IMG/VR virus record: IMGVR_UViG_3300037467_000275
Location: 1-40,682 of that record
DNA: 40,682 nt
Reading direction: 5' to 3' (one strand)
Origin: a virus
Lineage: Duplodnaviria; Caudoviricetes
Positions 7,981 through 40,370 of this stretch are shown one piece after another. Position 1 is the stretch's first letter, and every line of letters begins with the position of its first letter. The notes under the pieces are model-generated. The model was not told where the DNA came from, ran no database searches, and saw only the letters and a program-made list of their open reading frames with translations. The position numbers and the translations under genes were made by a program.

Positions 7981-8360
7981 GAGAGCACGCAGGGCCGCTC
8001 GAGGCTGACTTCCAGCGGTACTACCAGCTTGATCTGCTGGACCTGTGGCGTGGCCGGTTGACGCCGCGCCGCGCCGCGGTCCTGGCGATGCAACTTCCGT
8101 CGGGCGCGCAGACGTGGGTGTCGTGCGGCTTTGACAATGCATGGACGCTCGGCGAGCACCTGACTGCAGCCGTTGTGGATGCGGTGCGGGCGGGCAATTG
8201 GCAGCGCGCTGGCGACCCGAAGGCGAGGCGCCCTGAGCCCGTGAAGCGCCCTGCTGACCTGCGCGCCCATGATGCGACCGCGGCCCGCAATGACACTAAG
8301 GCGCTGGCGTTCCTTGAACGCCAGAAGCGCCGACAACTTGAGCAGACCGAGGAGGCGTGA
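7645..8360 (+). CDS. Tail assembly chaperone, long form via programmed -1 frameshift at about 7950-7956
   Basis: G GGA AAC slip. The -1 frame is open to 8360 and reads GKLLGLCYLLREHAGPLEADFQRYYQLDL..., a typical G-T extension. Confidence 0.85.
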
Positions 8361-10456
8361 TGGCCGGCGTTGATGTTGGAACCGCCTACCTGACCGTTGT
8401 CCCGTCGGCTAAGGGCTTCGCCGGGAACCTGCAGCGCGAGCTCGGTTCGGGCATGTCCGCTGCCGGTAAGCGCGCCGGCTCGGATGCGGCTGACGGGTTC
8501 GGGTCGTCGTTCAAGAGCGGCGTCTCCAACGTCGCAAAGGCTGGCGCGCTGCTCCTCGCTGGAGCTGCCGCTGGCGGTGTCGCGTTCGTGAAGGGCTCCA
8601 TCTCTGAGGCCCGTGAGGCGCAGAAGGTCGGCGCCATCACGGAGCAGATCATCAAGTCCACGGGCGGCGTCGCGAAGGTCACTGCGGCTCAGGTGGGCGA
8701 CCTCGCCACGGCCATCAGCAACAAGACGGGCGTCGACGACGAGGCCATCCAGGCTGGCGCGAACATGCTGCTCACGTTCAAGAATGTGCGCAACGAGGCC
8801 GGCAAGGGCGCCGACGTGTTCGACCGCGCCACGAAGGCTGCTGCGGACCTGTCTGCGGCCGGGTTCGGCGACATGGCCGGCCAGTCGAAGATGCTCGGCA
8901 AGGCACTGAACGACCCCGTCAAGGGCATCAGCGCGCTGTCTCGCTCGGGTGTCACGTTCACCGAGCAGCAGAAGGCGCAGATCAAGACGCTTGTCGCGTC
9001 GGGCAAGACGCTCGAGGCGCAGAAGATCATCCTCGGCGAAGTCGAGTCCCAGGTCGGCGGCACTGCGGAGGCGTCCGCTACTGCTGGCGAGAAGCTGGCG
9101 ACGGCATGGGGCAACTTCAAAGAGGGCATCGGCACAAGCTTGCTGCCTCTCGTGGACAAGCTCGCTACGTTCCTCAAGGACCGGCTGCTGCCAGGCGCTC
9201 AGGGCATCATCGACATCTTCGCCAAGGGCAAGGTGACGGACAACTTCGCCAAGGCGTTCAAGATCGAGGACGAGTCGAAACTGGCCGACTTCCTGTTTCG
9301 CGTGCGCGACGGCCTCAAGGCCGTGTCCGCGAACGTCAAGGAGTTCGTTGCCGGGTTCAAGTCTGGCGAGGGTGCGGGCGGCGCGTTCCGCGAGAACCTC
9401 GCGAAGCTCGTCGACATCGCCAAGGAGCTGTGGCCGTCCCTCAAGGACATTGCCAAGCAGTTGTATGCGGCGCACAAGGCTGTCGGTATCTCGACGTGGT
9501 CGGCGTTCCAGCCGATCATCGCGGCACTGCCGGGCATCCTCGAGTCGCTGGCCCCACTGCTCGCGTCCGTGGCGAAGTTCATGGGCGAGAACAAGGAACT
9601 CGTCGGAGCTCTCGTTGCCGCGCTAGGCGCAGGCATCGCGGCATTCAAGATCCTCTCCCCCATCGTCAAGGCTTACACGGTCGTTCAGGGCTTGCTCAAT
9701 GTAGTGATGACTGCGAACCCGATCGGCCTAGTCGTGGTGGCGCTCGCTGCTCTCGCCGCAGGATTGATCTACGCCTACAACAACAGTGAGACCTTCCGGT
9801 CATACGTGACTACGGCGTTCAGCATGGTGAAGATTGGCGCGCTGACGCTCGCCAGGGTCGCCGTGACGGCGTTCCAGTTCCTCGCGAACGTGTGGCTCAC
9901 GGTCGTTGGCGCGCTCCTCGACGGCGCCGCTACGGCGTTCGGCTGGGTGCCCGGCATTGGGCCGAAACTGCAGGGCGCCGCGACGGAGTTCGGCAAGTTC
10001 AAGACTGCAGCGAACACGCAACTCGACGCGATCAAGAACGACCTGCAGGTCAACATCAACACCGAGCTGGCGAGCGTCGCGCTCGAGGAGTTGCACCGCG
10101 AGTTCATCAACAAGGGCTGGACGGTGACGGCTGAGGTCAACACGCGCATGGTGTACGCGGGCGCTGGACAGTTGGTCCCGGCCCCACGCGCCACGGGCGG
10201 CCCCGTGTCTGCGGGTGGCGTCTATGCCGTGGGCGATAACCCTGACGGGTCGTGGAACCGCACGACGGAACTGCTCGTGCCTAGTCGTCCGGGAACCGTC
10301 GTGAACCAGGAGCAGATCGCTGCGGCGCTCGGCGGACGATCTGGCGGCCTGTCGCAAAGCGACATTGACCGGCTCGCTTACGCCTTCTCGCAGGTTCAGG
10401 TGAAGGCGTCCATCTCGGCCCATTCGGTCAGTGAAGCATTGGTGGCGGGAATGTGA
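8357..10456 (+). CDS. Tape measure protein
   Basis: Start VGTAYLTVVPSAKGF, Ala/Gly-rich helical repeats, ANPIGLVV, C-terminal RATGGPV; 699 aa. Confidence 0.92.
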   Translation: MMAGVDVGTAYLTVVPSAKGFAGNLQRELGSGMSAAGKRAGSDAADGFGSSFKSGVSNVAKAGALLLAGAAAGGVAFVKGSISEAREAQKVGAITEQIIKSTGGVAKVTAAQVGDLATAISNKTGVDDEAIQAGANMLLTFKNVRNEAGKGADVFDRATKAAADLSAAGFGDMAGQSKMLGKALNDPVKGISALSRSGVTFTEQQKAQIKTLVASGKTLEAQKIILGEVESQVGGTAEASATAGEKLATAWGNFKEGIGTSLLPLVDKLATFLKDRLLPGAQGIIDIFAKGKVTDNFAKAFKIEDESKLADFLFRVRDGLKAVSANVKEFVAGFKSGEGAGGAFRENLAKLVDIAKELWPSLKDIAKQLYAAHKAVGISTWSAFQPIIAALPGILESLAPLLASVAKFMGENKELVGALVAALGAGIAAFKILSPIVKAYTVVQGLLNVVMTANPIGLVVVALAALAAGLIYAYNNSETFRSYVTTAFSMVKIGALTLARVAVTAFQFLANVWLTVVGALLDGAATAFGWVPGIGPKLQGAATEFGKFKTAANTQLDAIKNDLQVNINTELASVALEELHREFINKGWTVTAEVNTRMVYAGAGQLVPAPRATGGPVSAGGVYAVGDNPDGSWNRTTELLVPSRPGTVVNQEQIAAALGGRSGGLSQSDIDRLAYAFSQVQVKASISAHSVSEALVAGM

Positions 10457-11193
10457 GCAGATGGCCCAACACAGTAACGATCGGCGACTTCGTCGCGGAC
10501 CTCGACGACCCCGGCGACTTCCGGCTCACAACCAAGGTTGAGGGCTGGGCGTCACCGCCTCGCCGACTCGACAACAACGACCTCACCGGCCGCGACGGCG
10601 GGTGGCGTTCCGGGGGCCTATTCGCCGCACGGACCATCGTCCACTCGGGGTTCGTCGACCAGGCTACGCCCGCAGCGGCGGCGTCGATCGTTGACTCTCT
10701 GGCGGCGATCCGGCCAGGCGCGCTCACGCCTTACACGGTGGAGCACGAGTCTTTGGGCGCCCGGCAGGTCGATGCGTGCGTCGCTGTCGGTATCGAGCCG
10801 AGCTGGATGGATGACAGGTCGTTCACGTACTCGATGACCCTTGTCGCCTATGACCCGTTCAAGAGGTCTACGACGCCGCGCACGACTGTTGTTGCGGCCG
10901 GCGCGACTGTCGCGGTTGACAACGACGGGACGGCTGCGGCTGACCTGATCGTGACGCTCACCTCGTCGGGCACGGTCTTGCTGACGTCGGGTGGTGTCAC
11001 GTTGACGACGGGCACGCTTCCGTCGGGTGCGGTCATCGACACGGGCGCGTGCACGGTCGTTTCGAGCGGCGGCGTGGACTTGTTCTCGTCGGTGCTGGTG
11101 CCGCGGTTCCCTGCGCTGCCTGCGGGTGGCGGGTCGGTGCATCAGGCGGGCACTGCTGGCCTGTCCGTACAGACCTTCGACACTTACGCCTAG
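10453..11193 (+). CDS. Distal tail protein (Dit)
   Basis: Follows TMP; VEGWASPP...GRDG...L.AYDPFK...NDGT. Confidence 0.75.
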   Translation: MSRWPNTVTIGDFVADLDDPGDFRLTTKVEGWASPPRRLDNNDLTGRDGGWRSGGLFAARTIVHSGFVDQATPAAAASIVDSLAAIRPGALTPYTVEHESLGARQVDACVAVGIEPSWMDDRSFTYSMTLVAYDPFKRSTTPRTTVVAAGATVAVDNDGTAAADLIVTLTSSGTVLLTSGGVTLTTGTLPSGAVIDTGACTVVSSGGVDLFSSVLVPRFPALPAGGGSVHQAGTAGLSVQTFDTYA

Positions 11194-12084: not shown

Positions 12085-15000
12085 GTGCCTTTCGACCCCT
12101 CGTCGCTGGCTAGCAATGTCCTTTGGCTGCGCGCCAAGGATCTCGGCGCCAACGGCTCGAGCATCACTACGTGGGCCGACCAGTCGGGCGCGGGCCACGA
12201 CGCGACGTCTTCGGTCGTCAACCCGACTGTCCAGACGTCCGCCACTCCTGGCGGCGGCAAGGCTGCGCTTTTCAACCACTCGATCCTGAACGCCCCGGCG
12301 CTCGGCCTGTCCGGCGACGGCGAGATGTGGCTGGTCATCAAGTCGACCGCTGTCGCCGACACTGCCGCCACGACGTGGAAGTTCGGCACCGCCTCCGGTG
12401 CGGATATCAACAACTACTACCCGTACTCGGGTGTCGTCTACGACGACTTTGGGTCTAACATGCGTCGCTCGTTCACGCCCACGGTCAGCCTGTCGTCGTG
12501 GCGGCTCGTGCGCGTCGGAATCACGGACGGCGGCTCAGGCACCGGCACGTGGTTCTACGAGATTGACAACGTGTCGCAGGCGTCGGTGGCCGGCGCGACG
12601 ATCTCGTGGCGCACCACCCCCTACCTGTCAAACTCGTCGTTCGGCAACAGCGGCGGGTCGGGTCTGGTAGGCAGCATCGCTGAGGTGCTGGTTCGCAACG
12701 CCGTGTCGTCGTCGGCCGAGGTCGCTGACCTAATCACCTACTTCAACACCGAACATGGGCTGTCGGTGTCCGGTGGGTCGGTGTCGGCGACGGTCAATGC
12801 GCCAGCCTTGGCGGCAACCTCTGACGTCCTCGACCCGACCGTGTTCGGCGGGTCGAATGTGAGCGTCTCCGCGCCGCTGCTTGCGGCCACGTCGGACGCG
12901 CTCGACCCGACGATCTCGCTCGGCGGAGATACTCTGGTCGACGCGCCAGCTCTGGCGGCCGTAAGCGATGTCCTCGACCCGGCTGTCGACATCGTGTCGA
13001 ACATCGCCGTCGACGCTCCCGTCCTGGCCGCCGTCAGCGACTTGCTCGACCCGACTGTCATTGGCGGCACGGACGTTTCCGTGTCGGCTCCGGTGCTTGC
13101 CGGCATGTCGGACGCGCTGAATCCGACGGTGATCCTCGACTCTGCGGAGGCTGTCGATCTTGGCATCCGCCTCGGGCTCGAGGTCTCCGATCAGGTCGTC
13201 ACATTCGACACGGAGACCGTCGACGTCGGCATCCGGCTCGGGCTCGAAGTGTCCGACGTCATCATCCACGCCGTCGAAACTGTCGAGCTCGGCATCGGTC
13301 TCGGGCTGCGCACCTACACCCCGAAGGCTTGGGGTGAGGATGTCCGCACGGGTCGGCCGGCGCCGCGGATCGACATCGCAGATCGTGACGGCACGCTCGT
13401 CGCGACCCTGCCGAAGTCGACGCTGAAGCCGCTCACGACCGGCGTCAACGTCCTCGACCGGTTCGGGTTCACGGTCGACCGGAACGACGACCGGGCGCGC
13501 CTGATTCAGCCTGTCGCGCATGAGGCGTACCTGTACCGCGGGAACGTGCTGATGGCGAAGGGCCCGATCGGTCCCGGCCAGTCCGGTGACGCGTTCACGT
13601 CGTACGACTGCGCCGACCCGCGCTGGCACTTCGCGGACGGGCGGCGCCGCATCGGCCGCATCCCGAAGCGTCAACTGCTCCTGAACCCTGGCTTCACCGA
13701 GGGTGCGAACGGTTTGGCGCACTGGGTCGGCGGCTGGGATGACGGGTCTGCTCTGGAGTCCGCTCCTGAGGCGTCCGTCGTCGACGAGTCCTACGCCCGG
13801 TCGGGTAAGGCGCTCGAGCTCGGCGGCGTCGACAAGGTGCTGCGCGGCACGGAGACGCTGGAGACGGCTGCCGTGTTCAAGGGCAACCGGCCGTACGCGT
13901 GGGAGCCGCTCGCGAACGGGTTCCTGCCCGGTGGCGAGGCCGCCATCACCGCGATCGCGAACATGATGACCGGCCCCGCGCCCGTCGTGCACATCACGGG
14001 CCACACCGCCGACGCGGACGCTGGCGACGGTCAGGCACTGTCGGAGCGGCGCGCGCTCGCGGCGAAGGCTGTCGTGCTCGCGCGCTGGCCCGCCGCTGTC
14101 GTCACGACCGAAGGCAAGGGCGAGACAGAGCCTGCGGTCAAGGGCCACACCGAGGCGGCGTACCGGAAGAACCGTCGCGTCGTGTTCGACTTCGACCGGA
14201 ACGTCTCCGCGGTCGGTCACCGCCAGTTCTATTACCAGTGGGTGACGGTCACACAGCCGACGTCGGCGAAGGTGCCCCTGCCTCTGACGTTCGCCGCGGA
14301 CATGCGGATCATCGAATGGCTCGGTGCCCCTGGCGACGGGTGGGCGATCCTCGTCCGCGCCAAACGCGGCTCGACCGTCATCGACGAGGCGAACGCGACG
14401 ATGGACGAGTTCACGCCGCGGGTCCGGTGGGCGCACTACGAGGGGACCGTCGAGATCCCCGCAGACGGCATCGCCACCGCAGTGCAGGTCCGGCTGTACC
14501 CGCCCGCAGGTTCGTCGCGGTGGGCGAACGCCGGCCTGTGGCCGCAGGACCAGCTCGGGTTCTTCGACGTCGACCAGGCGCTCATCGTCAAGGGCATCGT
14601 CGAGCACGTGCAGGACGAGTCCCTCGGTCACGGCGACCTCGGCATCGGCACCCGCACCCCGCTCACGGGCGTCCCGCGAACGCGCGAGTACCCGTACCAC
14701 GAGCGGATGCCAGCCGACACGGCGATGGAGTGGTTCACGTCCATCGACAAGGGCATGGATATCGACTATGACCAGGTCCGCAATCAGGTCGTGACGCACT
14801 ACCCGCGCCAGGGCACTTCTGTGGATCTGGCGCTGGTGCATGGCGGTCGCCGGTCGAACGTCGTGGCGTACAAGCCGCTGTCGACGTCCGCGCTGGCGTT
14901 GGCGTCGAACGTGATCGTGCAGGCTGACGGTTCGGGCGCGTCCCGACCGGAAGGCTACGCGCGCGACTCGGCCGCTCTGGGCGGGACTCTGGTTGAGGGT

Positions 15001-15267
15001 GTCATCTCCGCTGAGGAGGAGACGCCGCTGTCGGAGCTCGACGAGGGCGCCGCGTCCGCGCTCGCTGCGTCGCTGCGTGCCCGGCCCGGCTGGGAGGTCA
15101 CCGTGTCGCCCGACTGGACGACGCGCGTGCTCGACGAGACCGGCAAGGGCGACACGCTGCGGCTGGCGCTCCCTGACGAGGGTGTGGACGGCCCGCACCG
15201 GCTCGTCTCGTCCCAGTGGGACCCGGAGACGGACATCGTGACCCTGACGCTCATCGAGGAGGCGTAA
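12085..15267 (+). CDS. Multidomain tail tip/hub protein: LamG-like N-terminus, repeat stalk, Gp37-like hub with inserted CBM and OmpA-like domain
   Basis: LWLRA...WADQSG.G...GSIAEV (lectin-like); 24-aa repeats; hub motifs DVDQALI...GDLGI...RTREY...KGD; NPGF CBM; HITGHT...LSERRA...GKGE..P...NRRV. Confidence 0.85.
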   Translation: MPFDPSSLASNVLWLRAKDLGANGSSITTWADQSGAGHDATSSVVNPTVQTSATPGGGKAALFNHSILNAPALGLSGDGEMWLVIKSTAVADTAATTWKFGTASGADINNYYPYSGVVYDDFGSNMRRSFTPTVSLSSWRLVRVGITDGGSGTGTWFYEIDNVSQASVAGATISWRTTPYLSNSSFGNSGGSGLVGSIAEVLVRNAVSSSAEVADLITYFNTEHGLSVSGGSVSATVNAPALAATSDVLDPTVFGGSNVSVSAPLLAATSDALDPTISLGGDTLVDAPALAAVSDVLDPAVDIVSNIAVDAPVLAAVSDLLDPTVIGGTDVSVSAPVLAGMSDALNPTVILDSAEAVDLGIRLGLEVSDQVVTFDTETVDVGIRLGLEVSDVIIHAVETVELGIGLGLRTYTPKAWGEDVRTGRPAPRIDIADRDGTLVATLPKSTLKPLTTGVNVLDRFGFTVDRNDDRARLIQPVAHEAYLYRGNVLMAKGPIGPGQSGDAFTSYDCADPRWHFADGRRRIGRIPKRQLLLNPGFTEGANGLAHWVGGWDDGSALESAPEASVVDESYARSGKALELGGVDKVLRGTETLETAAVFKGNRPYAWEPLANGFLPGGEAAITAIANMMTGPAPVVHITGHTADADAGDGQALSERRALAAKAVVLARWPAAVVTTEGKGETEPAVKGHTEAAYRKNRRVVFDFDRNVSAVGHRQFYYQWVTVTQPTSAKVPLPLTFAADMRIIEWLGAPGDGWAILVRAKRGSTVIDEANATMDEFTPRVRWAHYEGTVEIPADGIATAVQVRLYPPAGSSRWANAGLWPQDQLGFFDVDQALIVKGIVEHVQDESLGHGDLGIGTRTPLTGVPRTREYPYHERMPADTAMEWFTSIDKGMDIDYDQVRNQVVTHYPRQGTSVDLALVHGGRRSNVVAYKPLSTSALALASNVIVQADGSGASRPEGYARDSAALGGTLVEGVISAEEETPLSELDEGAASALAASLRARPGWEVTVSPDWTTRVLDETGKGDTLRLALPDEGVDGPHRLVSSQWDPETDIVTLTLIEEA
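12781..13317 (+). repeat. Coding tandem repeats in the tail protein
   Basis: Five 24-aa units (V.AP.LAA.SD.LDPTV) followed by about three 21-22-aa units (E.VD.GIRLGLEVSD). Confidence 0.85.
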
Positions 15268-17695: not shown

Positions 17696-18535
17696 ATGGG
17701 TGGCTCAACCCTGCCCACCGCATCAACGCCCGGCTACACGTCCTTCCGCGGCTGGGTCGCCTGCGTGTGCCTCGCCCAGTGGCTCCCCGCCTACGAGCGG
17801 CTCCTACTCGCCCGCGGCCTGATCAAGTCGAACATCGACATTTGGCAGCTCACCGGGGGCGCGGCAGCGTCGGGCGGCACCCACTCGCAGGGCGGCGCGT
17901 TCGACCTGCTCTACCAGACCACCGCCGCTCACGTCGCCGTCGCACGCGAGATGGGCGCCCCTGCTACGTGGGCTAGGACCGTCTCGCAGGGCTTCTCCAA
18001 GGCCCACACCCACGGCGTGCTGTCCGGCTGCCCACACAACGCCCCCGCCGCCTACCAGATCACCGCACAGAAGCGCGGCTACAACGGCCTCGGTCAAGCC
18101 ACGTCTGGCACCTACGCCGGCATGTGGGGCTATGGCTTCAAGGACGAGTTCCCCGACCCGAAGACGTACCGCTCGTGGCGTGAAGGCATCGCCTGGGCCG
18201 AAGCGCAGATCAAGACACTCACCGCCCAGCAGGAGGACCCCATGCCCACACCCGCCGAACTCTGGGCCGTGCCATTCAAGTCGCCCACCGACGACGTGTC
18301 CTACCCTGCGAGCTCGTGGCTCGTCATGGCGAACGTCAAGGCAGGCGAGGCCCGCGCGCTCGCGTCGAAGGCACTCGCTGAGGTGGCCGCACTCCGGTCC
18401 GCGTTCCAGGCCCTCGCCGCCAACCCTGACATGACGCCCGAGCAGGTCACCGCCGCAGCGAAGGCTGGCGCGCAGGCTGCCCTCGACGAGAAGATCACCG
18501 ACGCCGTCACCACCCTCAACGTCAACCCGACCTGA
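17696..18535 (+). CDS. Endolysin, M15-like Zn peptidase
   Basis: SGGTHSQGGAFD (H-x6-D) and HTH metal motifs; AGGAGG RBS; flanked by membrane genes. Confidence 0.8.
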   Translation: MGGSTLPTASTPGYTSFRGWVACVCLAQWLPAYERLLLARGLIKSNIDIWQLTGGAAASGGTHSQGGAFDLLYQTTAAHVAVAREMGAPATWARTVSQGFSKAHTHGVLSGCPHNAPAAYQITAQKRGYNGLGQATSGTYAGMWGYGFKDEFPDPKTYRSWREGIAWAEAQIKTLTAQQEDPMPTPAELWAVPFKSPTDDVSYPASSWLVMANVKAGEARALASKALAEVAALRSAFQALAANPDMTPEQVTAAAKAGAQAALDEKITDAVTTLNVNPT

Positions 18536-19302: not shown

Positions 19303-19377
19303 TAGGATGGCCATGCAAGACCCCCGCGACACGGTCAGGTGTCCGGGGGCGCGACCGACTGTTAAGGAGTCGATATG
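19303..19377 (+). promoter_or_regulatory. Structured leader, copy 1
   Basis: -10 TAGGAT; AGACCCCCGCGAC..GTCCGGGGG hairpin; CGACT/AGTCG stem over the AAGGAG RBS. Confidence 0.7.
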
Positions 19378-19869
19378 AGCAACCCTACACTCGTCTCACG
19401 GGTGAGCCTCGAACACCTGGCGGCACTGGCTTTCTGGGGTCGCGTCGACCAGCACGGAGACTCCGAGTGTTGGCCATGGATGGGCGGCAGGTCCAAGCAG
19501 GGATATGGCGTCGTTCACGTTCCGGGCCGCATCACCGGCCTAGGACGCCCAGTCGCGATCCACACTCATCGAGTGGCGGCATCGCTCGCTCGTGGCGCGG
19601 TCCTCACCGCATCTGAGGTAGTCGACCACCGTTGCTACAACACTGCTTGTTGCAATCCCGCACATCTCGACGTGACGACGCAGCTCACCAACGTTCGCCG
19701 ATCCCGCAAGCCACTATGCCGGCCCATGCCGTTCCCTCGGCCCGACGGCTCGATCCGGTGGCAGGTTCGCTGGTACGACTACTCGGGACCGAAGCGGCGC
19801 TACCTGTCGCGCTCGTTCGAGTCCGAGGCCGAGGCGTGGGCCTTCTCAGGGGCCAATCGGGTGGCCTGA
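19375..19869 (+). CDS. HNH endonuclease with C-terminal AP2/integrase-arm-like domain
   Basis: CWPW.G...GYG...HR...VDHRC.NTACCNPAHL...N; C-terminus WQVRWYD...RSFESEAEA. Confidence 0.88.
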   Translation: MSNPTLVSRVSLEHLAALAFWGRVDQHGDSECWPWMGGRSKQGYGVVHVPGRITGLGRPVAIHTHRVAASLARGAVLTASEVVDHRCYNTACCNPAHLDVTTQLTNVRRSRKPLCRPMPFPRPDGSIRWQVRWYDYSGPKRRYLSRSFESEAEAWAFSGANRVA

Positions 19870-20407: not shown

Positions 20408-20595
20408 CCGCGCCGACGCTGACCGAGTTCCTCCTCGCCCGCATCGCCGAGGGCGGGCCGAAAGCCGAACTCGTGACTCGCTTGGGTGACGACGTCACCG
20501 ACGGCGACCTCACGACGGCGAGCGACGCCACCCTGCGGGCGCTCGCAGGGGTCTACGCCGACCACCCCGACTACGACGAGGCGTGGCGTGCCTAG
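20404..20595 (+). CDS. DUF6221-like small protein
   Basis: LTEFLLARIAE...LRALAGVYADHPDYDEAW, a shortened version of a common actinobacterial prophage family. Confidence 0.65.
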   Translation: MTAPTLTEFLLARIAEGGPKAELVTRLGDDVTDGDLTTASDATLRALAGVYADHPDYDEAWRA

Positions 20596-21766
20596 CGTCA
20601 ACTCCCGCACCCTCAAAAGCGGCCGGACCGTCTACTTCGTCCGAACCCGCAACGCCCTCGGCAAGCAGACGTCCGAACGTTTCGACACCAAACGCGAAGC
20701 CGAGACCTTCGCCAAACGCGTCGAACGCATCGGCGGCCCCGCAGCCATCGCCGAACGCGCCCGCAAAGACCGCGCCGACAGCGACTATGTGCCCACCCTT
20801 GCCGAGTGGCTCCCTCAGCACATCGAGCAGCTCACTGGAGTCACCGACCGCACGCGCCTCGACTACGCCTCAATGGCTGCGCGCACGTTCATGCCGATCC
20901 TCGGCGACACGCCCCTCGACGGGATCGATCGCGCCGCCGTGGCCAAATGCATCAACGCGCTCGACGCGAAGGGTCTGTCCGCGAAGAGCATCGCCAACGC
21001 ACACGGGCTGCTGTCCGCTGTCATGGCGTCCGCGGTCCTGGCCGACCATGTCGGCACCAACCCGTGCCACAAGATGCGCCTCCCCCGCTCCCGCGAGACC
21101 GAACGCCGAGACGAACGGTTCCTGACGCACGCCGAGTATTACCGGCTGCTCGAGCAGATCCCCGCCGCGCACAAGCCGCTCGTCATCACCATGTTCGGCA
21201 CTGGCCTGCGCTGGTCCGAGCTCACCGCGCTCGAGGTCCGCGACGTCATCCTCGGCAACCCGCCCACGCTGCGCGTCAACAAGGCGTGGAAGTCGACACC
21301 CGGCCGGGCGCGTGAGATCGGCCCGCCGAAGTCCACCAAGTCGCGGCGCACTGTCATGCTTCCAACCCAGGTCGTCGACGCCCTCACGCCGCTACTGGAC
21401 CGGCCCGGCGACGCCCTGTTGTTCACGGCACCCCGAGGCGGCCCGATCTACCACGGCTGGTGGCGAGCTCGCGTGTGGGTGCCAGCGTGCCAACGCGCCG
21501 GCCTGGCATCGCCCCGAGTCGAGGGGAAGCGGTACGTGTACGACGGGCCGCGCATCCACGACGCACGCCACACCCATGCCTCATGGCTGATCGAACAAGG
21601 CGCAACCCTCGAGATGGTGCAGGACCAGCTCGGCCACGAGTCAATCCTGACAACACGCAAGGTCTATGGCGCGCTGCAGCCGGCGATGATGTCTGCGCTC
21701 GCTGAGGCCGCTACCCGCGCGATGGCGATGGGCGCTCCGGAACCTGTCGCGCATATCGAGGCCTAG
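20588..21766 (+). CDS. int: Tyrosine integrase
   Basis: N-terminal arm-binding domain; TGLRWSEL, PKS, HDARH, LGH, VY catalytic residues. Confidence 0.95.
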   Translation: MPSVNSRTLKSGRTVYFVRTRNALGKQTSERFDTKREAETFAKRVERIGGPAAIAERARKDRADSDYVPTLAEWLPQHIEQLTGVTDRTRLDYASMAARTFMPILGDTPLDGIDRAAVAKCINALDAKGLSAKSIANAHGLLSAVMASAVLADHVGTNPCHKMRLPRSRETERRDERFLTHAEYYRLLEQIPAAHKPLVITMFGTGLRWSELTALEVRDVILGNPPTLRVNKAWKSTPGRAREIGPPKSTKSRRTVMLPTQVVDALTPLLDRPGDALLFTAPRGGPIYHGWWRARVWVPACQRAGLASPRVEGKRYVYDGPRIHDARHTHASWLIEQGATLEMVQDQLGHESILTTRKVYGALQPAMMSALAEAATRAMAMGAPEPVAHIEA

Positions 21767-26127: not shown

Positions 26128-26234
26128 TCGGGCGCCCCATCGGTGAAACACATGGAGAGCAGTGCGATTCGGACGATCCGTACTGGTGGTGCGATTCCTG
26201 CCGCCACAACCTCCGCTGCGACGAGGAGGACTGA
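26124..26234 (+). CDS. Small Cys-rich protein
   Basis: GGAGG RBS, coupled to neighbours. Confidence 0.45.
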   Translation: MIGRPIGETHGEQCDSDDPYWWCDSCRHNLRCDEED

Positions 26235-26368
26235 TGACCGGCCACGAACTCATGGACTTCGGCGCGCTCCTCTGTGGAATCGCCACCATCACAGGCTCAC
26301 TCGTCATCTGCGCCATCTTCGGCCTCTACCAACTCGACGACTCGCTCAGGAGGGACGACGACCAATGA
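26234..26368 (+). CDS. Small membrane protein
   Basis: GAGGAGG RBS; single TM. Confidence 0.55.
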   Translation: MTGHELMDFGALLCGIATITGSLVICAIFGLYQLDDSLRRDDDQ

Positions 26369-27042
26369 GCCAGCCCAAGCTCCTAGACCTGTTCTGCGGT
26401 GCAGGCGGCACTGGCATGGGCCTTCACCGCGCTGGCTTCGACATCGTGGGGGTCGACAAGGAAGCGCACCCCGAATACCCGTTCCCGATGTTCGTCGCCG
26501 ACGCGCTCACATTCATCGACGACGGGTGGATGGAGGCGGGCAACTTCGACGCCGTAGCTGCCGGGCCACCATGCCCGCGCTACTCAGTCGCCACGCCGGA
26601 ACATGCCCGCGACAACCACCCCGATCTCGTGCAGCCCGTGCGGGAACGCCTCATCGCATCCGGACTCCCCTACATCATCGAGAACGTCCCCGGCGCGCCG
26701 CTGATCGATCCGATCCTCCTGTGCGGCTCAATGTTCGGCCTCGGGGTCCGCCGGCACCGCCTGTTCGAGTCGAACATTCCGCTCGAGCAGCCGACCTGCC
26801 GACACAGCCAGCAGCAGCAGGTGTGGGGCGTCTACGGGCAGCACGGCGACCTCCGCGGCCCAGTGCCACGCCCAAACGGGACGAGTCGCGGCGGCAAGGC
26901 GAGGGATGCAGCTCACGCACGCGAAGTCATGGGCATCGACTGGATGACCCAGTGGGCCGACCTCGCCGACGCAATCCCACCGTCTTTCACGGAGTTCATC
27001 GGCCGACAGCTCATCGCGCATATCGAGGAGAAGGCCGCATGA
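26365..27042 (+). CDS. C5-cytosine DNA methyltransferase (compact)
   Basis: DLFCGAGG (motif I), GPPC (IV), ENV (VI), R.HRLF (VIII), AIPP (X). Confidence 0.88.
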   Translation: MSQPKLLDLFCGAGGTGMGLHRAGFDIVGVDKEAHPEYPFPMFVADALTFIDDGWMEAGNFDAVAAGPPCPRYSVATPEHARDNHPDLVQPVRERLIASGLPYIIENVPGAPLIDPILLCGSMFGLGVRRHRLFESNIPLEQPTCRHSQQQQVWGVYGQHGDLRGPVPRPNGTSRGGKARDAAHAREVMGIDWMTQWADLADAIPPSFTEFIGRQLIAHIEEKAA

Positions 27043-30275: not shown

Positions 30276-30346
30276 ATGCGCCGGCCATCGTCAAATCGAT
30301 GGGCGGCCGAAGCCGTCCGAATCCGCGTCGCGCTGGACGGTCCCGC

Positions 30347-30994
30347 ATGAGTCTCTACTATTCCGACGAGTCGGTGACGCTCTACCATGGCGACTGCCGC
30401 GACGAGGTCGCATGGCTGGCCGCCGACATCCTCGTCACTGACCCGCCCTATGGGATCCGGTGGTCGAACCACTCGGCCTACAACGGTGGCACGGCTGGGA
30501 AGTCGATCGCTGGCGACGTCGACACGTCGTGCCGAGACGCGGCGCTGTCCGCATGGGGCGATCGCCCTGGCATCGTCTTCGGCTCATGGGCTGCGCCGTT
30601 CCCCGAACATCGACAGGCCCTCGTGTGGCGCAAGCCGTCGGACTCCGGTGTCATCGGCAGCACGACTGGATACCGCCGCGACACGGAGTTGATCTTCCTC
30701 ACCGGCTCATGGCCCAAGCGATCCGCCGCGCGCTCATCCGTGCTGACCACCGACGCGGGCATGGGCTCATACCTGAACGGTCACCCACACGCCAAGCCGA
30801 CATCGCTGCTCCTCCGGCTCCTTGAGTGGACCGAAGGCAAGGTGGCCGACCCGTTCGCCGGCAGCGGATCGACCCTTGTCGCGGCCAAGCAGCTCGGACG
30901 CAAGGCCATTGGCGTCGAGCTTGAGGAGCGCTACTGCGAGGTCATAGCCAAGCGTCTCGCGCAGGGCGTCCTCGACTTTGGCGAGGCGGGCTGA
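30347..30994 (+). CDS. N4-cytosine/N6-adenine DNA methyltransferase (beta class)
   Basis: LYHGDC, TDPPYG, HP.AKP, DPFAGSGSTL, GVELEE.YC. Confidence 0.92.
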   Translation: MSLYYSDESVTLYHGDCRDEVAWLAADILVTDPPYGIRWSNHSAYNGGTAGKSIAGDVDTSCRDAALSAWGDRPGIVFGSWAAPFPEHRQALVWRKPSDSGVIGSTTGYRRDTELIFLTGSWPKRSAARSSVLTTDAGMGSYLNGHPHAKPTSLLLRLLEWTEGKVADPFAGSGSTLVAAKQLGRKAIGVELEERYCEVIAKRLAQGVLDFGEAG

Positions 30995-38837: not shown

Positions 38838-40370
38838 ATGCCCACGTACACATTCCAGATGGCCGGGAACCTGGCAGGCTTCCCCGTGACGGTAACGGAC
38901 GCTACCGCTACCACAGTCACGACCGGAACCCTCGACGGGAATGCGCGATTCAGCGCCACTCTGCCGGTGGGCGACTACATCGCCAGCGCGGAATACGCCT
39001 CAAGGACCTACAGGTCCGGTGGCGTCGTAGACCAGGGCGACGCTGACCGACTGTCCCCCGAAGGCGTGGCTGACACCTCCAGAAAGTCCCTTGCGGCATT
39101 CGCGGCGCTCCGGGCTGCCCTCGTCGACGGGTCCCGCTCGTGCGGCATTCAGGTGCTCGGCGACTCTACCGGAAACGACACGTTCGAGTGGCCGTACAAG
39201 CTCGCCGAGTCCATCGCTGAGCGTTACCCGGCGTGGACGGTCCAGCACCGGCTCTGGTCTGATGCGACGCAGCAGTACGCCGCCCCGACGACCATCCAGA
39301 CCGGCACGGCTGGCGCGCGCTATCTCGACTGCTCGACCGGGTCCACGACGCGCCGCCTCGACACGTCCGTGACGACCCACCCGACCAGCGGTGTCCTCGA
39401 CGTTCGCGTCAAGGTCTCACTGACTGACTGGACCCCAGCCGCAAACGTGAACTTCTGCGGCCGCTCCGCATCCGACCCGAACCGGTCATGGTACTGCGGC
39501 CTGTTCGCAGGCTCAGGCAACCCGTTCTTCTCGTTCACGCCCAACGGGCTCGGCGCCAGCATGGTGACCAAGAACCTTGGTGTGACAACGGGATTTGTGG
39601 ACGGCTCCACGAACTGGCTGCGGTACGTGTTCATCCCCGACAATGGCGCCAGCGGCTACGACTTCAAAGTCTACACCTCGGCAGACGGCGTCACTTGGAC
39701 ACAGCTCGGCTCCACCGTCACCACCGCAGGCGCGACCGCGCTCTACAACAACACCGCAACCGCCTACGAGGTGGGTGGTGTCGCTGGCGCCGTCAACTCC
39801 ACGCTGAAGGTGTACGAAGTGCAGATCCGCGACGGTGTCGATGGGCCCAACCTCGTGCCCGCGCTGCCCGACCTGTGGCCCCGGAACAACAGTTCAGGCG
39901 TCCTCGTCGCAGGCGCACCCGTCCTGACCATCGTCAACGGCTCGCACACTGGAGCGCCCATCTCCTACCTCGGTGATGCGACTCGGCTACCCAAAATGAC
40001 GCCCGACTACGGTCAGCTCGTCACCTTCCTGTCCGACCAGCACAACGAGACGACATGGCAAGGCCCAGCGTGGATCGCGAAGTACGACACATGGCGCCAA
40101 CAGGTCGAGGCCCAAGTGCCCGGTTCGCCGGTCATCATCCTCACACAGAACCCCAAGACCAACGCTGACACGTGGTACCGCGAAGGCGCAGCCCGACGAC
40201 TCGACCTGATCGCCTACGCGCGTTCCAAGTCAATCGACTACATCGACACATACCAGGCCTTCCTCGACGCAGGGTGGCCCGGCAACCTCATGGCCGACGC
40301 AATCCACCCCAACGCGGCTGGCCAGCTCGTCTGGCGAGACGCCATCCTCAACAGGTTCCTGATCTCCTAA
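38838..40370 (+). CDS. SGNH/GDSL esterase with inserted lectin-like domain
   Basis: Blocks GDSTG, NGSHTG, HNE and DAIHPN; beta-rich insert between blocks I and II. Confidence 0.85.
   Translation: MPTYTFQMAGNLAGFPVTVTDATATTVTTGTLDGNARFSATLPVGDYIASAEYASRTYRSGGVVDQGDADRLSPEGVADTSRKSLAAFAALRAALVDGSRSCGIQVLGDSTGNDTFEWPYKLAESIAERYPAWTVQHRLWSDATQQYAAPTTIQTGTAGARYLDCSTGSTTRRLDTSVTTHPTSGVLDVRVKVSLTDWTPAANVNFCGRSASDPNRSWYCGLFAGSGNPFFSFTPNGLGASMVTKNLGVTTGFVDGSTNWLRYVFIPDNGASGYDFKVYTSADGVTWTQLGSTVTTAGATALYNNTATAYEVGGVAGAVNSTLKVYEVQIRDGVDGPNLVPALPDLWPRNNSSGVLVAGAPVLTIVNGSHTGAPISYLGDATRLPKMTPDYGQLVTFLSDQHNETTWQGPAWIAKYDTWRQQVEAQVPGSPVIILTQNPKTNADTWYREGAARRLDLIAYARSKSIDYIDTYQAFLDAGWPGNLMADAIHPNAAGQLVWRDAILNRFLIS

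Follow-up and report, generated by a model that had tools for sequence, protein, structure and literature searches.

An OmpA-type domain nested in a phage tail hub, a putative adhesin for glycine-bridged peptidoglycan

OmpA-type domains are the meso-DAP anchors of bacterial envelope machines. We found one inside the tail-tip protein encoded by the window (the whole virus record analysed here, 40,682 bases with a GC content of ~67%), and on balance we read this insert as a putative accessory wall adhesin retuned to glycine-bridged LL-DAP (A3-gamma) peptidoglycan, a proposal built from sequence comparison. The domain likely grips a bridged wall, because it has lost the same two residues as the MotB proteins of peptide-bridged actinobacteria. 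To our knowledge, few phage proteins that bind peptidoglycan stems have been identified.

The layout of the window is that of a temperate siphophage. Pfam and PHROG searches gave terminase, portal, capsid, tail tube, tape measure (TMP) and Dit genes, after which come two small genes and then the 1060-aa ORF (Table 1). An assembly chimera or misassembly of the tail-tip gene was ruled out by two other viral contigs, which hold the same stretch at 99% and 96% identity. The putative endolysin had no Pfam or PHROG family match.

Table 1. Domains of the tail-tip protein and other features of the window (res, residues of the 1060-aa protein).
Feature	Position	Strand	Basis or remark
TMP (tape measure)	8357-10456		upstream of the tail-tip gene
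Dit	10453-11193		after TMP; two small genes separate it from the tail-tip gene
Tail-tip protein, 1060 aa	12085..15267	+	N-terminal lectin-like domain, repeats, then hub::CBM::OmpA_C
N-terminal domain, likely LamG/concanavalin-A-like lectin (res 1-230)	12085..12774	+	ESM Atlas feature score 0.97 to PF13385 cluster
Five 24-residue repeats (res 237-353) and three ~22-residue repeats (res 357-415)	12793..13329	+	likely spacer
gp27/Tal hub, N-terminal half (res 420-524)	13342..13656	+	fold alignment; comparison with relatives
CBM-type jelly roll, first part (res 526-583)	13660..13833	+	fold rows 2zew, 5x7o, 5w6h; ends in the stalk's outgoing strand
OmpA_C-like domain (res 588-705)	13846..14199	+	Pfam, phmmer, fold; A642 at Asp site, G649 at Asn site
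CBM-type jelly roll, second part (res 711-821)	14215..14547	+	fold alignment; comparison with relatives
gp27/Tal hub, C-terminal half (res 824-1060)	14554..15267	+	fold alignment
Putative endolysin	17696..18535	+	assigned by position and a motif that we take to be M15-like; served as host marker
HNH endonuclease	19375-19869		adjoins integrase
Integrase	20486-21766
C5 and N6/N4 DNA methyltransferases	26143-27042 and 30299-30994
Tail-fibre-like N-terminal match (phrog_15641) with GDSL/SGNH-like domain	38838-40370		isolated gene near genome end, remote from tail operon

Earlier inspection of the letters alone had proposed an OmpA_C domain in the tail protein, nested in a CBM-type sandwich that is itself nested in a hub, and the motifs it quoted are present in the 1060-aa ORF. 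The Pfam check suggested at that time was run and placed PF00691 at residues 618-697, just above threshold (E 3.5e-6, 27.7 bits against a cut-off of 27.2); the family reached 32.7 bits in a genome-wide profile search, and phmmer with the insert alone matched Pal/P6 structures at E 4e-7. In an AlphaFold2 model covering residues 420-1060 (22-sequence alignment, pLDDT 87.3), positions 169-286, equal to residues 588-705, align to TagL 5m38 (Z 15.1, rmsd 2.1, 109 aligned), and the target TM for 3td5 is 0.76. A chance motif was ruled out by the PF00691 match together with the fold alignment. Model positions 107-402, or residues 526-821, align to the CBM16 structure 2zew (Z 13.8, rmsd 2.6, 139 aligned); several CBM-like fold rows tie at Z 13-14, and no Pfam CBM family matched the jelly roll. 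The hub, at model positions 5-641, aligns to 3cdd (Z 22.2, rmsd 3.4, 298 aligned) and to 1wru (Z 21.6), with gp27-like rows at Z 18.5-22.2 and a Foldseek E of 2.9e-10. In the predicted structure the three fold ranges (588-705, 526-821 and 420-1060) nest as had been proposed, OmpA_C inside the CBM-type jelly roll inside the gp27/Tal hub. The same reading had called the hub Gp37-like: the hub assignment stands on the fold, while the family name does not, since Sipho_Gp37 (PF14594) had no match in the tail-tip protein at E 0.01. Two relatives (P0008, P0009) match Prophage_tail PF06605 weakly. No C-terminal spike or hydrolase extension follows the hub in residues 824-1060. The N-terminal domain gave no Pfam match over residues 1-230, a sequence search of the PDB with the N-terminus returned nothing informative, and a single-sequence fold of residues 1-420 had a pLDDT of only 39.6. 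Among relatives this domain is replaced by discoidin, LamG or DUF4082 or is missing, a pattern of free swapping.

We then compared the ligand pocket with those of solved or mutated OmpA-type domains. When PorE is bound to peptidoglycan, the DAP amine is contacted by Asp576 and Asn584, and the carboxylate by Arg591 together with main-chain amides (PMC7192894). In A. baumannii OmpA, D271A and R286A are critical and D271A removes DAP binding (as cited in PMC6572160); wall binding by TagL depends on Asn494, Leu497 and Arg501 and is abolished by mutation of Asn494 (PMC8253398). The phage pocket has Ala642 at the Asp site and Gly649 at the Asn site, and retains L652, R656, R697, R698 and N601. Of the hallmarks of a canonical meso-DAP binder, the carboxylate-bridging Arg (R656) is thus present and the amine-binding Asp and Asn are absent, in agreement with the sequence-only reading; the lost residues correspond exactly to the amine binders of PorE. 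Given that the equivalent Asp-to-Ala change costs A. baumannii OmpA its DAP binding, ordinary meso-DAP binding is unlikely, and by this analogy free-amine meso-DAP should not be bound in the usual manner. In domains with Ala and Gly at the two sites (A/G domains), R656, R697 and R698 are present in 45/45. The residue after the Ala site is D in 24 of these, N in 19 and Y in 2, so the lost Asp has no fixed substitute; Asp643 as a shifted ligand Asp was ruled out as a rule (N or Y in 21/45). Across 38 A/G proteins, conservation reaches 95% or more at 17 of the 118 positions of the insert, including A642, G649, L652, R656, R697 and R698; the corresponding shares in other parts of the core of the same proteins are 1/101, 5/58, 4/111 and 7/235. 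As the insert has the highest conserved share in the core, the pocket looks remodelled under selection and not decayed.

FemAB-family transferases add the peptide bridges of bridged peptidoglycan, and FemAB presence is only a proxy for wall bridging. MotB must anchor to the wall, and its pocket should therefore track wall chemistry. In the bacterial family of the Intrasporangium bin G001, MotB was found in 58 of 301 genomes: none of the 12 FemAB-positive cases keeps Asp (9 Ala/Val, 3 Asn/Asp), whereas all 46 FemAB-negative ones keep Asp and Asn, 2 of these being split over frames (motB in L073 of G283 and in L120 of G229), which may reflect either a sequencing error or a pseudogene. A class-wide sample had MotB in 30 of 171 genomes, and exclusion of two unpublished genomes and one repeat left 27. 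Asp and Asn are kept there in 0/17 FemAB-positive genomes (15 without Asp, 2 Asp/Glu) and in 9/10 FemAB-negative ones. With both samples joined, the pair is kept in 0/29 FemAB-positive versus 55/56 FemAB-negative MotB, counts that overstate independence because the genomes are related (phylogenetically clustered, with about two host events). This covariation of the MotB pocket with FemAB is a finding in its own right; it was seen across Actinomycetia (loci L058-L065, L068-L097, L103-L106 and L111-L159). The Asn/Asp-Glu swap shifts the acid to the Asn site, where a short bridge might be bound by its terminal amine. One host of the tail gene, G152, has an A/V MotB. OmpA domains other than MotB are more mixed, which counts against the link: 9 of 27 canonical ones lie in genomes with some FemAB match, and among nine strong-FemAB genomes with resolved non-MotB OmpA domains (two further such genomes were left outside), 3 keep Asp and Asn, 3 carry Ala in place of Asp and the other 3 are changed differently.

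Trees suggest that the phage and host changes arose separately. In a FastTree of inserts from which the two diagnostic columns had been taken out, the 44 A/G domains group as a single clade (0.967). Compared with host domains, the A/G clade joins neither MotB A/V nor other Asp-less host domains, the deep supports being weak; the closest group to MotB A/V is a canonical MotB, its sister, and the Asn/Asp-Glu group lies apart. Since phage A/G, MotB A/V and MotB N/D-E fall in separate clades, Asp and Asn were lost at least 3 separate times. Capture from an already Asp-less host domain is unsupported, as the A/G clade groups with no such host domain (deep supports weak). The specificity shift raised by the sequence-only reading as a possibility gains comparative support from the same change in host MotB of FemAB genomes. 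It is this parallel that one alternative leaves unexplained, namely that the pocket, together with the CBM, recognises a carboxylate of the wall outside the DAP stem, be it on a glycopolymer (pyruvylated or with uronic acid) or at the free C-terminus of a peptide. A carboxylate clamp is all that remains in the pocket, and the domain is grafted on a CBM-type fold beside swappable lectins; MotB, however, is a known peptidoglycan anchor, and we regard this alternative as unlikely.

The insert is a family-wide feature and not a one-off capture. A first search gave 29 matches with 24 family-wide homologues, of which 24/24 carry the insert and 23/24 the altered pocket. A one-off recent capture was ruled out by this distribution and by GC3, which is 0.91 in the insert and 0.92 and 0.90 in the hub halves. 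So that the insert itself would not bias the sample, 1.84 billion representatives were searched with a profile built solely from the sequence that follows it, which yielded 1036 matches at E 0.001 or better. This amounts to the survey of hubs with and without the insert that had been suggested earlier: among the best 150 of the 1036, the insert is present in 59 and absent from 77, and the other 14 are too short for a decision. The pockets of the 59 are Ala/Gly in 28, canonical Asp/Asn in 15 and of other form in 16. The layers can also be followed singly, since the hub halves of P0039 lie 5 residues apart, P0036 and P0037 have the CBM only, with a jelly roll that runs uninterrupted, and P0034 has the CBM and a canonical OmpA domain. 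A FastTree of hub halves (335 alignment columns from 147 proteins, with P0039 chosen as the root) places 68 of the 69 proteins that carry the insert in one clade (0.905), along with 6 that lack it, and 70 insert-free hubs lie apart (0.969). The pattern would fit one old gain of the insert followed by later losses, with a root and supports that are modest.

These same data feed a further alternative, in which the domain survives only as a relic that serves as a rigid spacer or a decoration, binding having been lost, perhaps so that progeny avoid wall debris after lysis. Asp to Ala is the classic binding-dead mutation (PMC6572160), 16/59 inserts among the best 150 of 1036 matches are further changed, and 6 hubs of the insert clade have no insert; all three observations count against retuning, as does the loss of wall binding on mutation of TagL Asn494. 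A relic is nevertheless hard to square with a core in which no positions are more conserved than the pocket residues, and with R656, R697 and R698 in every A/G domain, and we consider it improbable.

Several relatives vary the arrangement. The order TMP, Dit, hub is repeated in L004-L008 and in two prophages, as judged from ORF lists. Hubs 95-98% identical to that of the window, and without the N-terminal lectin, are found in L004 (7749-9926) and L005 (7746-9926); in L005 the Dit is divergent (49%) and the tape measure is not that of the window, so the tip module is exchanged among phage backbones. Canonical OmpA domains also occur, at other sites, in further phage hub families (P0180-P0182, P0188 and, on a 137.6-kb contig, L163:9353-11116), in at least 2 layouts: within a beta-rich insert of another kind, or set straight into the hub. 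One group of inserts has a rewritten pocket with no GHT motif and, in some members, no Arg (P0067, P0076, P0078, P0081, P0082, P0089, P0096, P0105, P0107, P0109, P0126 and P0140); several have a C-terminal extension of ~185 residues. P0005 has a duplicated module with two OmpA inserts, P0045 and P0065 have a single OmpA domain in an insert ~120 residues longer, and the long hub inserts of P0131, P0135 and P0158 gave no OmpA match.

Source names of the relatives include Intrasporangium mesophilum, Intrasporangium sp., Aeromicrobium sp. and a Solirubrobacteraceae bin. With the best 2 candidates per genome considered, the full tail gene was found in 3 of the 301 family genomes (G001, G152 and G155), and in G152 and G155 it sits in a prophage tail operon; an order-wide sample had it in 1/401, the search centre itself. 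A FemAB match is present in 124 of the 301 genomes, among them all 3 tail-gene hosts, and a strong match in 10/10 genomes of the genus Intrasporangium. The host link is thin: it comprises 3 genomes, including the search centre itself, and the FemAB background is 41%. Two other genes of the window point to similar hosts. Its TMP and the one encoded by the G155 prophage share 63.5% identity, and the nearest relatives of its putative endolysin are in G191 (66%) and G155 (47%), both with FemAB. The catalytic part of the endolysin is matched in 2/66 FemAB genomes versus 0/80 FemAB-negative ones, and these 80, out of 177 FemAB-negative genomes, gave one weak endolysin match outside the catalytic part. 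Intrasporangium has LL-DAP of type A3-gamma, with triglycine as the bridge in I. calvum (PMC3035309, PMC6113628), and the DAP amine would therefore be acylated.

Weak binding of ordinary meso-DAP stems, with the avidity of three copies as compensation, would call on the Arg and backbone contacts that are still there and on canonical-pocket relatives in the same hub family (15/59 inserts among the best 150 of 1036 matches). We think this very improbable: among the best 2 candidates per genome, no prophage with the tail gene was found in the 177 FemAB-negative of the 301 genomes, and the fixed double change is left unexplained. Least probable of all is that the domain binds a protein, either of the host surface or elsewhere in the tail, through a surface outside the pocket. 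The variable loop of the fold may bind partners (PMC8253398) and is diverse among phage inserts, yet conservation is centred on the pocket and not on this loop.

We therefore return to an adhesin retuned to glycine-bridged LL-DAP. If the protein behaves as known trimeric hubs under Dit do (PMC7533335, PMC13252515), a trimer below the Dit ring would present three CBM::OmpA arms and three N-terminal lectins, and the lectins and the CBM would bind wall glycopolymers. Judging from solved complexes, Arg656 and backbone amides may clamp the free carboxylate of glycine-substituted LL-DAP, and loss of Asp and Asn would leave no free-amine site and make room for the acylated amine. Docking would be weak and avid, holding the tip against the wall after glycan recognition. 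Insert losses within the clade, in the 6 insert-free hubs, suggest that this role is accessory and not the sole receptor-binding step. A broader rule can be offered tentatively: Asp and Asn may serve for directly cross-linked meso-DAP walls and Ala and Gly for glycine-bridged LL-DAP, so that a lineage of actinobacterial phages would directly read the peptidoglycan chemotype of the host with a captured OmpA domain, and MotB, having made the same switch independently, would extend this to a sequence code for OmpA-type ligands. If true, these proposals would place a stem-peptide adhesin on a phage hub and supply a two-residue rule for adapting the OmpA fold to bridged peptidoglycan, one that bears on flagellar stator anchoring in motile bridged-wall actinobacteria. 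Host prediction for uncultured phages would be aided by one motif, and small probes for LL-DAP walls could be obtained.

In 50,697 phage records, the core of the tail-tip protein had no match, and a canonical phage OmpA domain matched 28 records, none of them an actinophage; P0034 matched solely the hub of Streptomyces phage mu1/6. Prevalence of the insert in annotated actinophage tails, which would have removed its novelty, was accordingly not seen among cultured actinophage records. Within full-text literature at title and abstract level, a body that has most subscription journals outside it, we found no report of an OmpA domain in a phage hub, nor any that ties the MotB pocket to bridged walls. 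Huge-phage OmpA proteins (bioRxiv 10.64898/2026.10.24.761521) are likewise phage-encoded members of the OmpA family, but they are 8-stranded outer-membrane barrels expressed in the host and not tail domains. Phages alpha2, Bam35, A511 and phi11 use peptidoglycan as receptor or co-receptor, which resembles the role proposed here; in section 8 of PMC6115969, glycan units are bound or the binding protein is unnamed, and no OmpA-type stem binder is named. The 'evolved' Tal of S. thermophilus pac group B phages (PMC7533335) has adhesion-type inserts in loops of the gp27 fold, as here, but these are CBM or hydrolase-like, with no OmpA domain or nesting described in the accessible sections. With other gp27-like hubs (MuSo2 3CDD, Mu gp44 1WRU, 80alpha Tal, and those of mycobacteriophages Douge and Bxb1) the protein shares the hub fold and the position after TMP and Dit; it differs in its two-level insert, its 420-residue N-terminal lectin/repeat extension and its lack of a C-terminal extension. 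The fold, the Leu, the Arg and the NRR motif are common to the phage domain and the OmpA/Pal/MotB domains of PF00691 (TagL 5M38, A. baumannii OmpA 3TD3/3TD5, P. gingivalis PorE), whereas the phage domain sits in a virion hub instead of an envelope protein and has Ala and Gly in place of Asp and Asn. The PF00691 fold, gp27/Tal hubs and CBM inserts in Tal were already known; new here are the nested hub::CBM::OmpA family and the link of its pocket to wall type.
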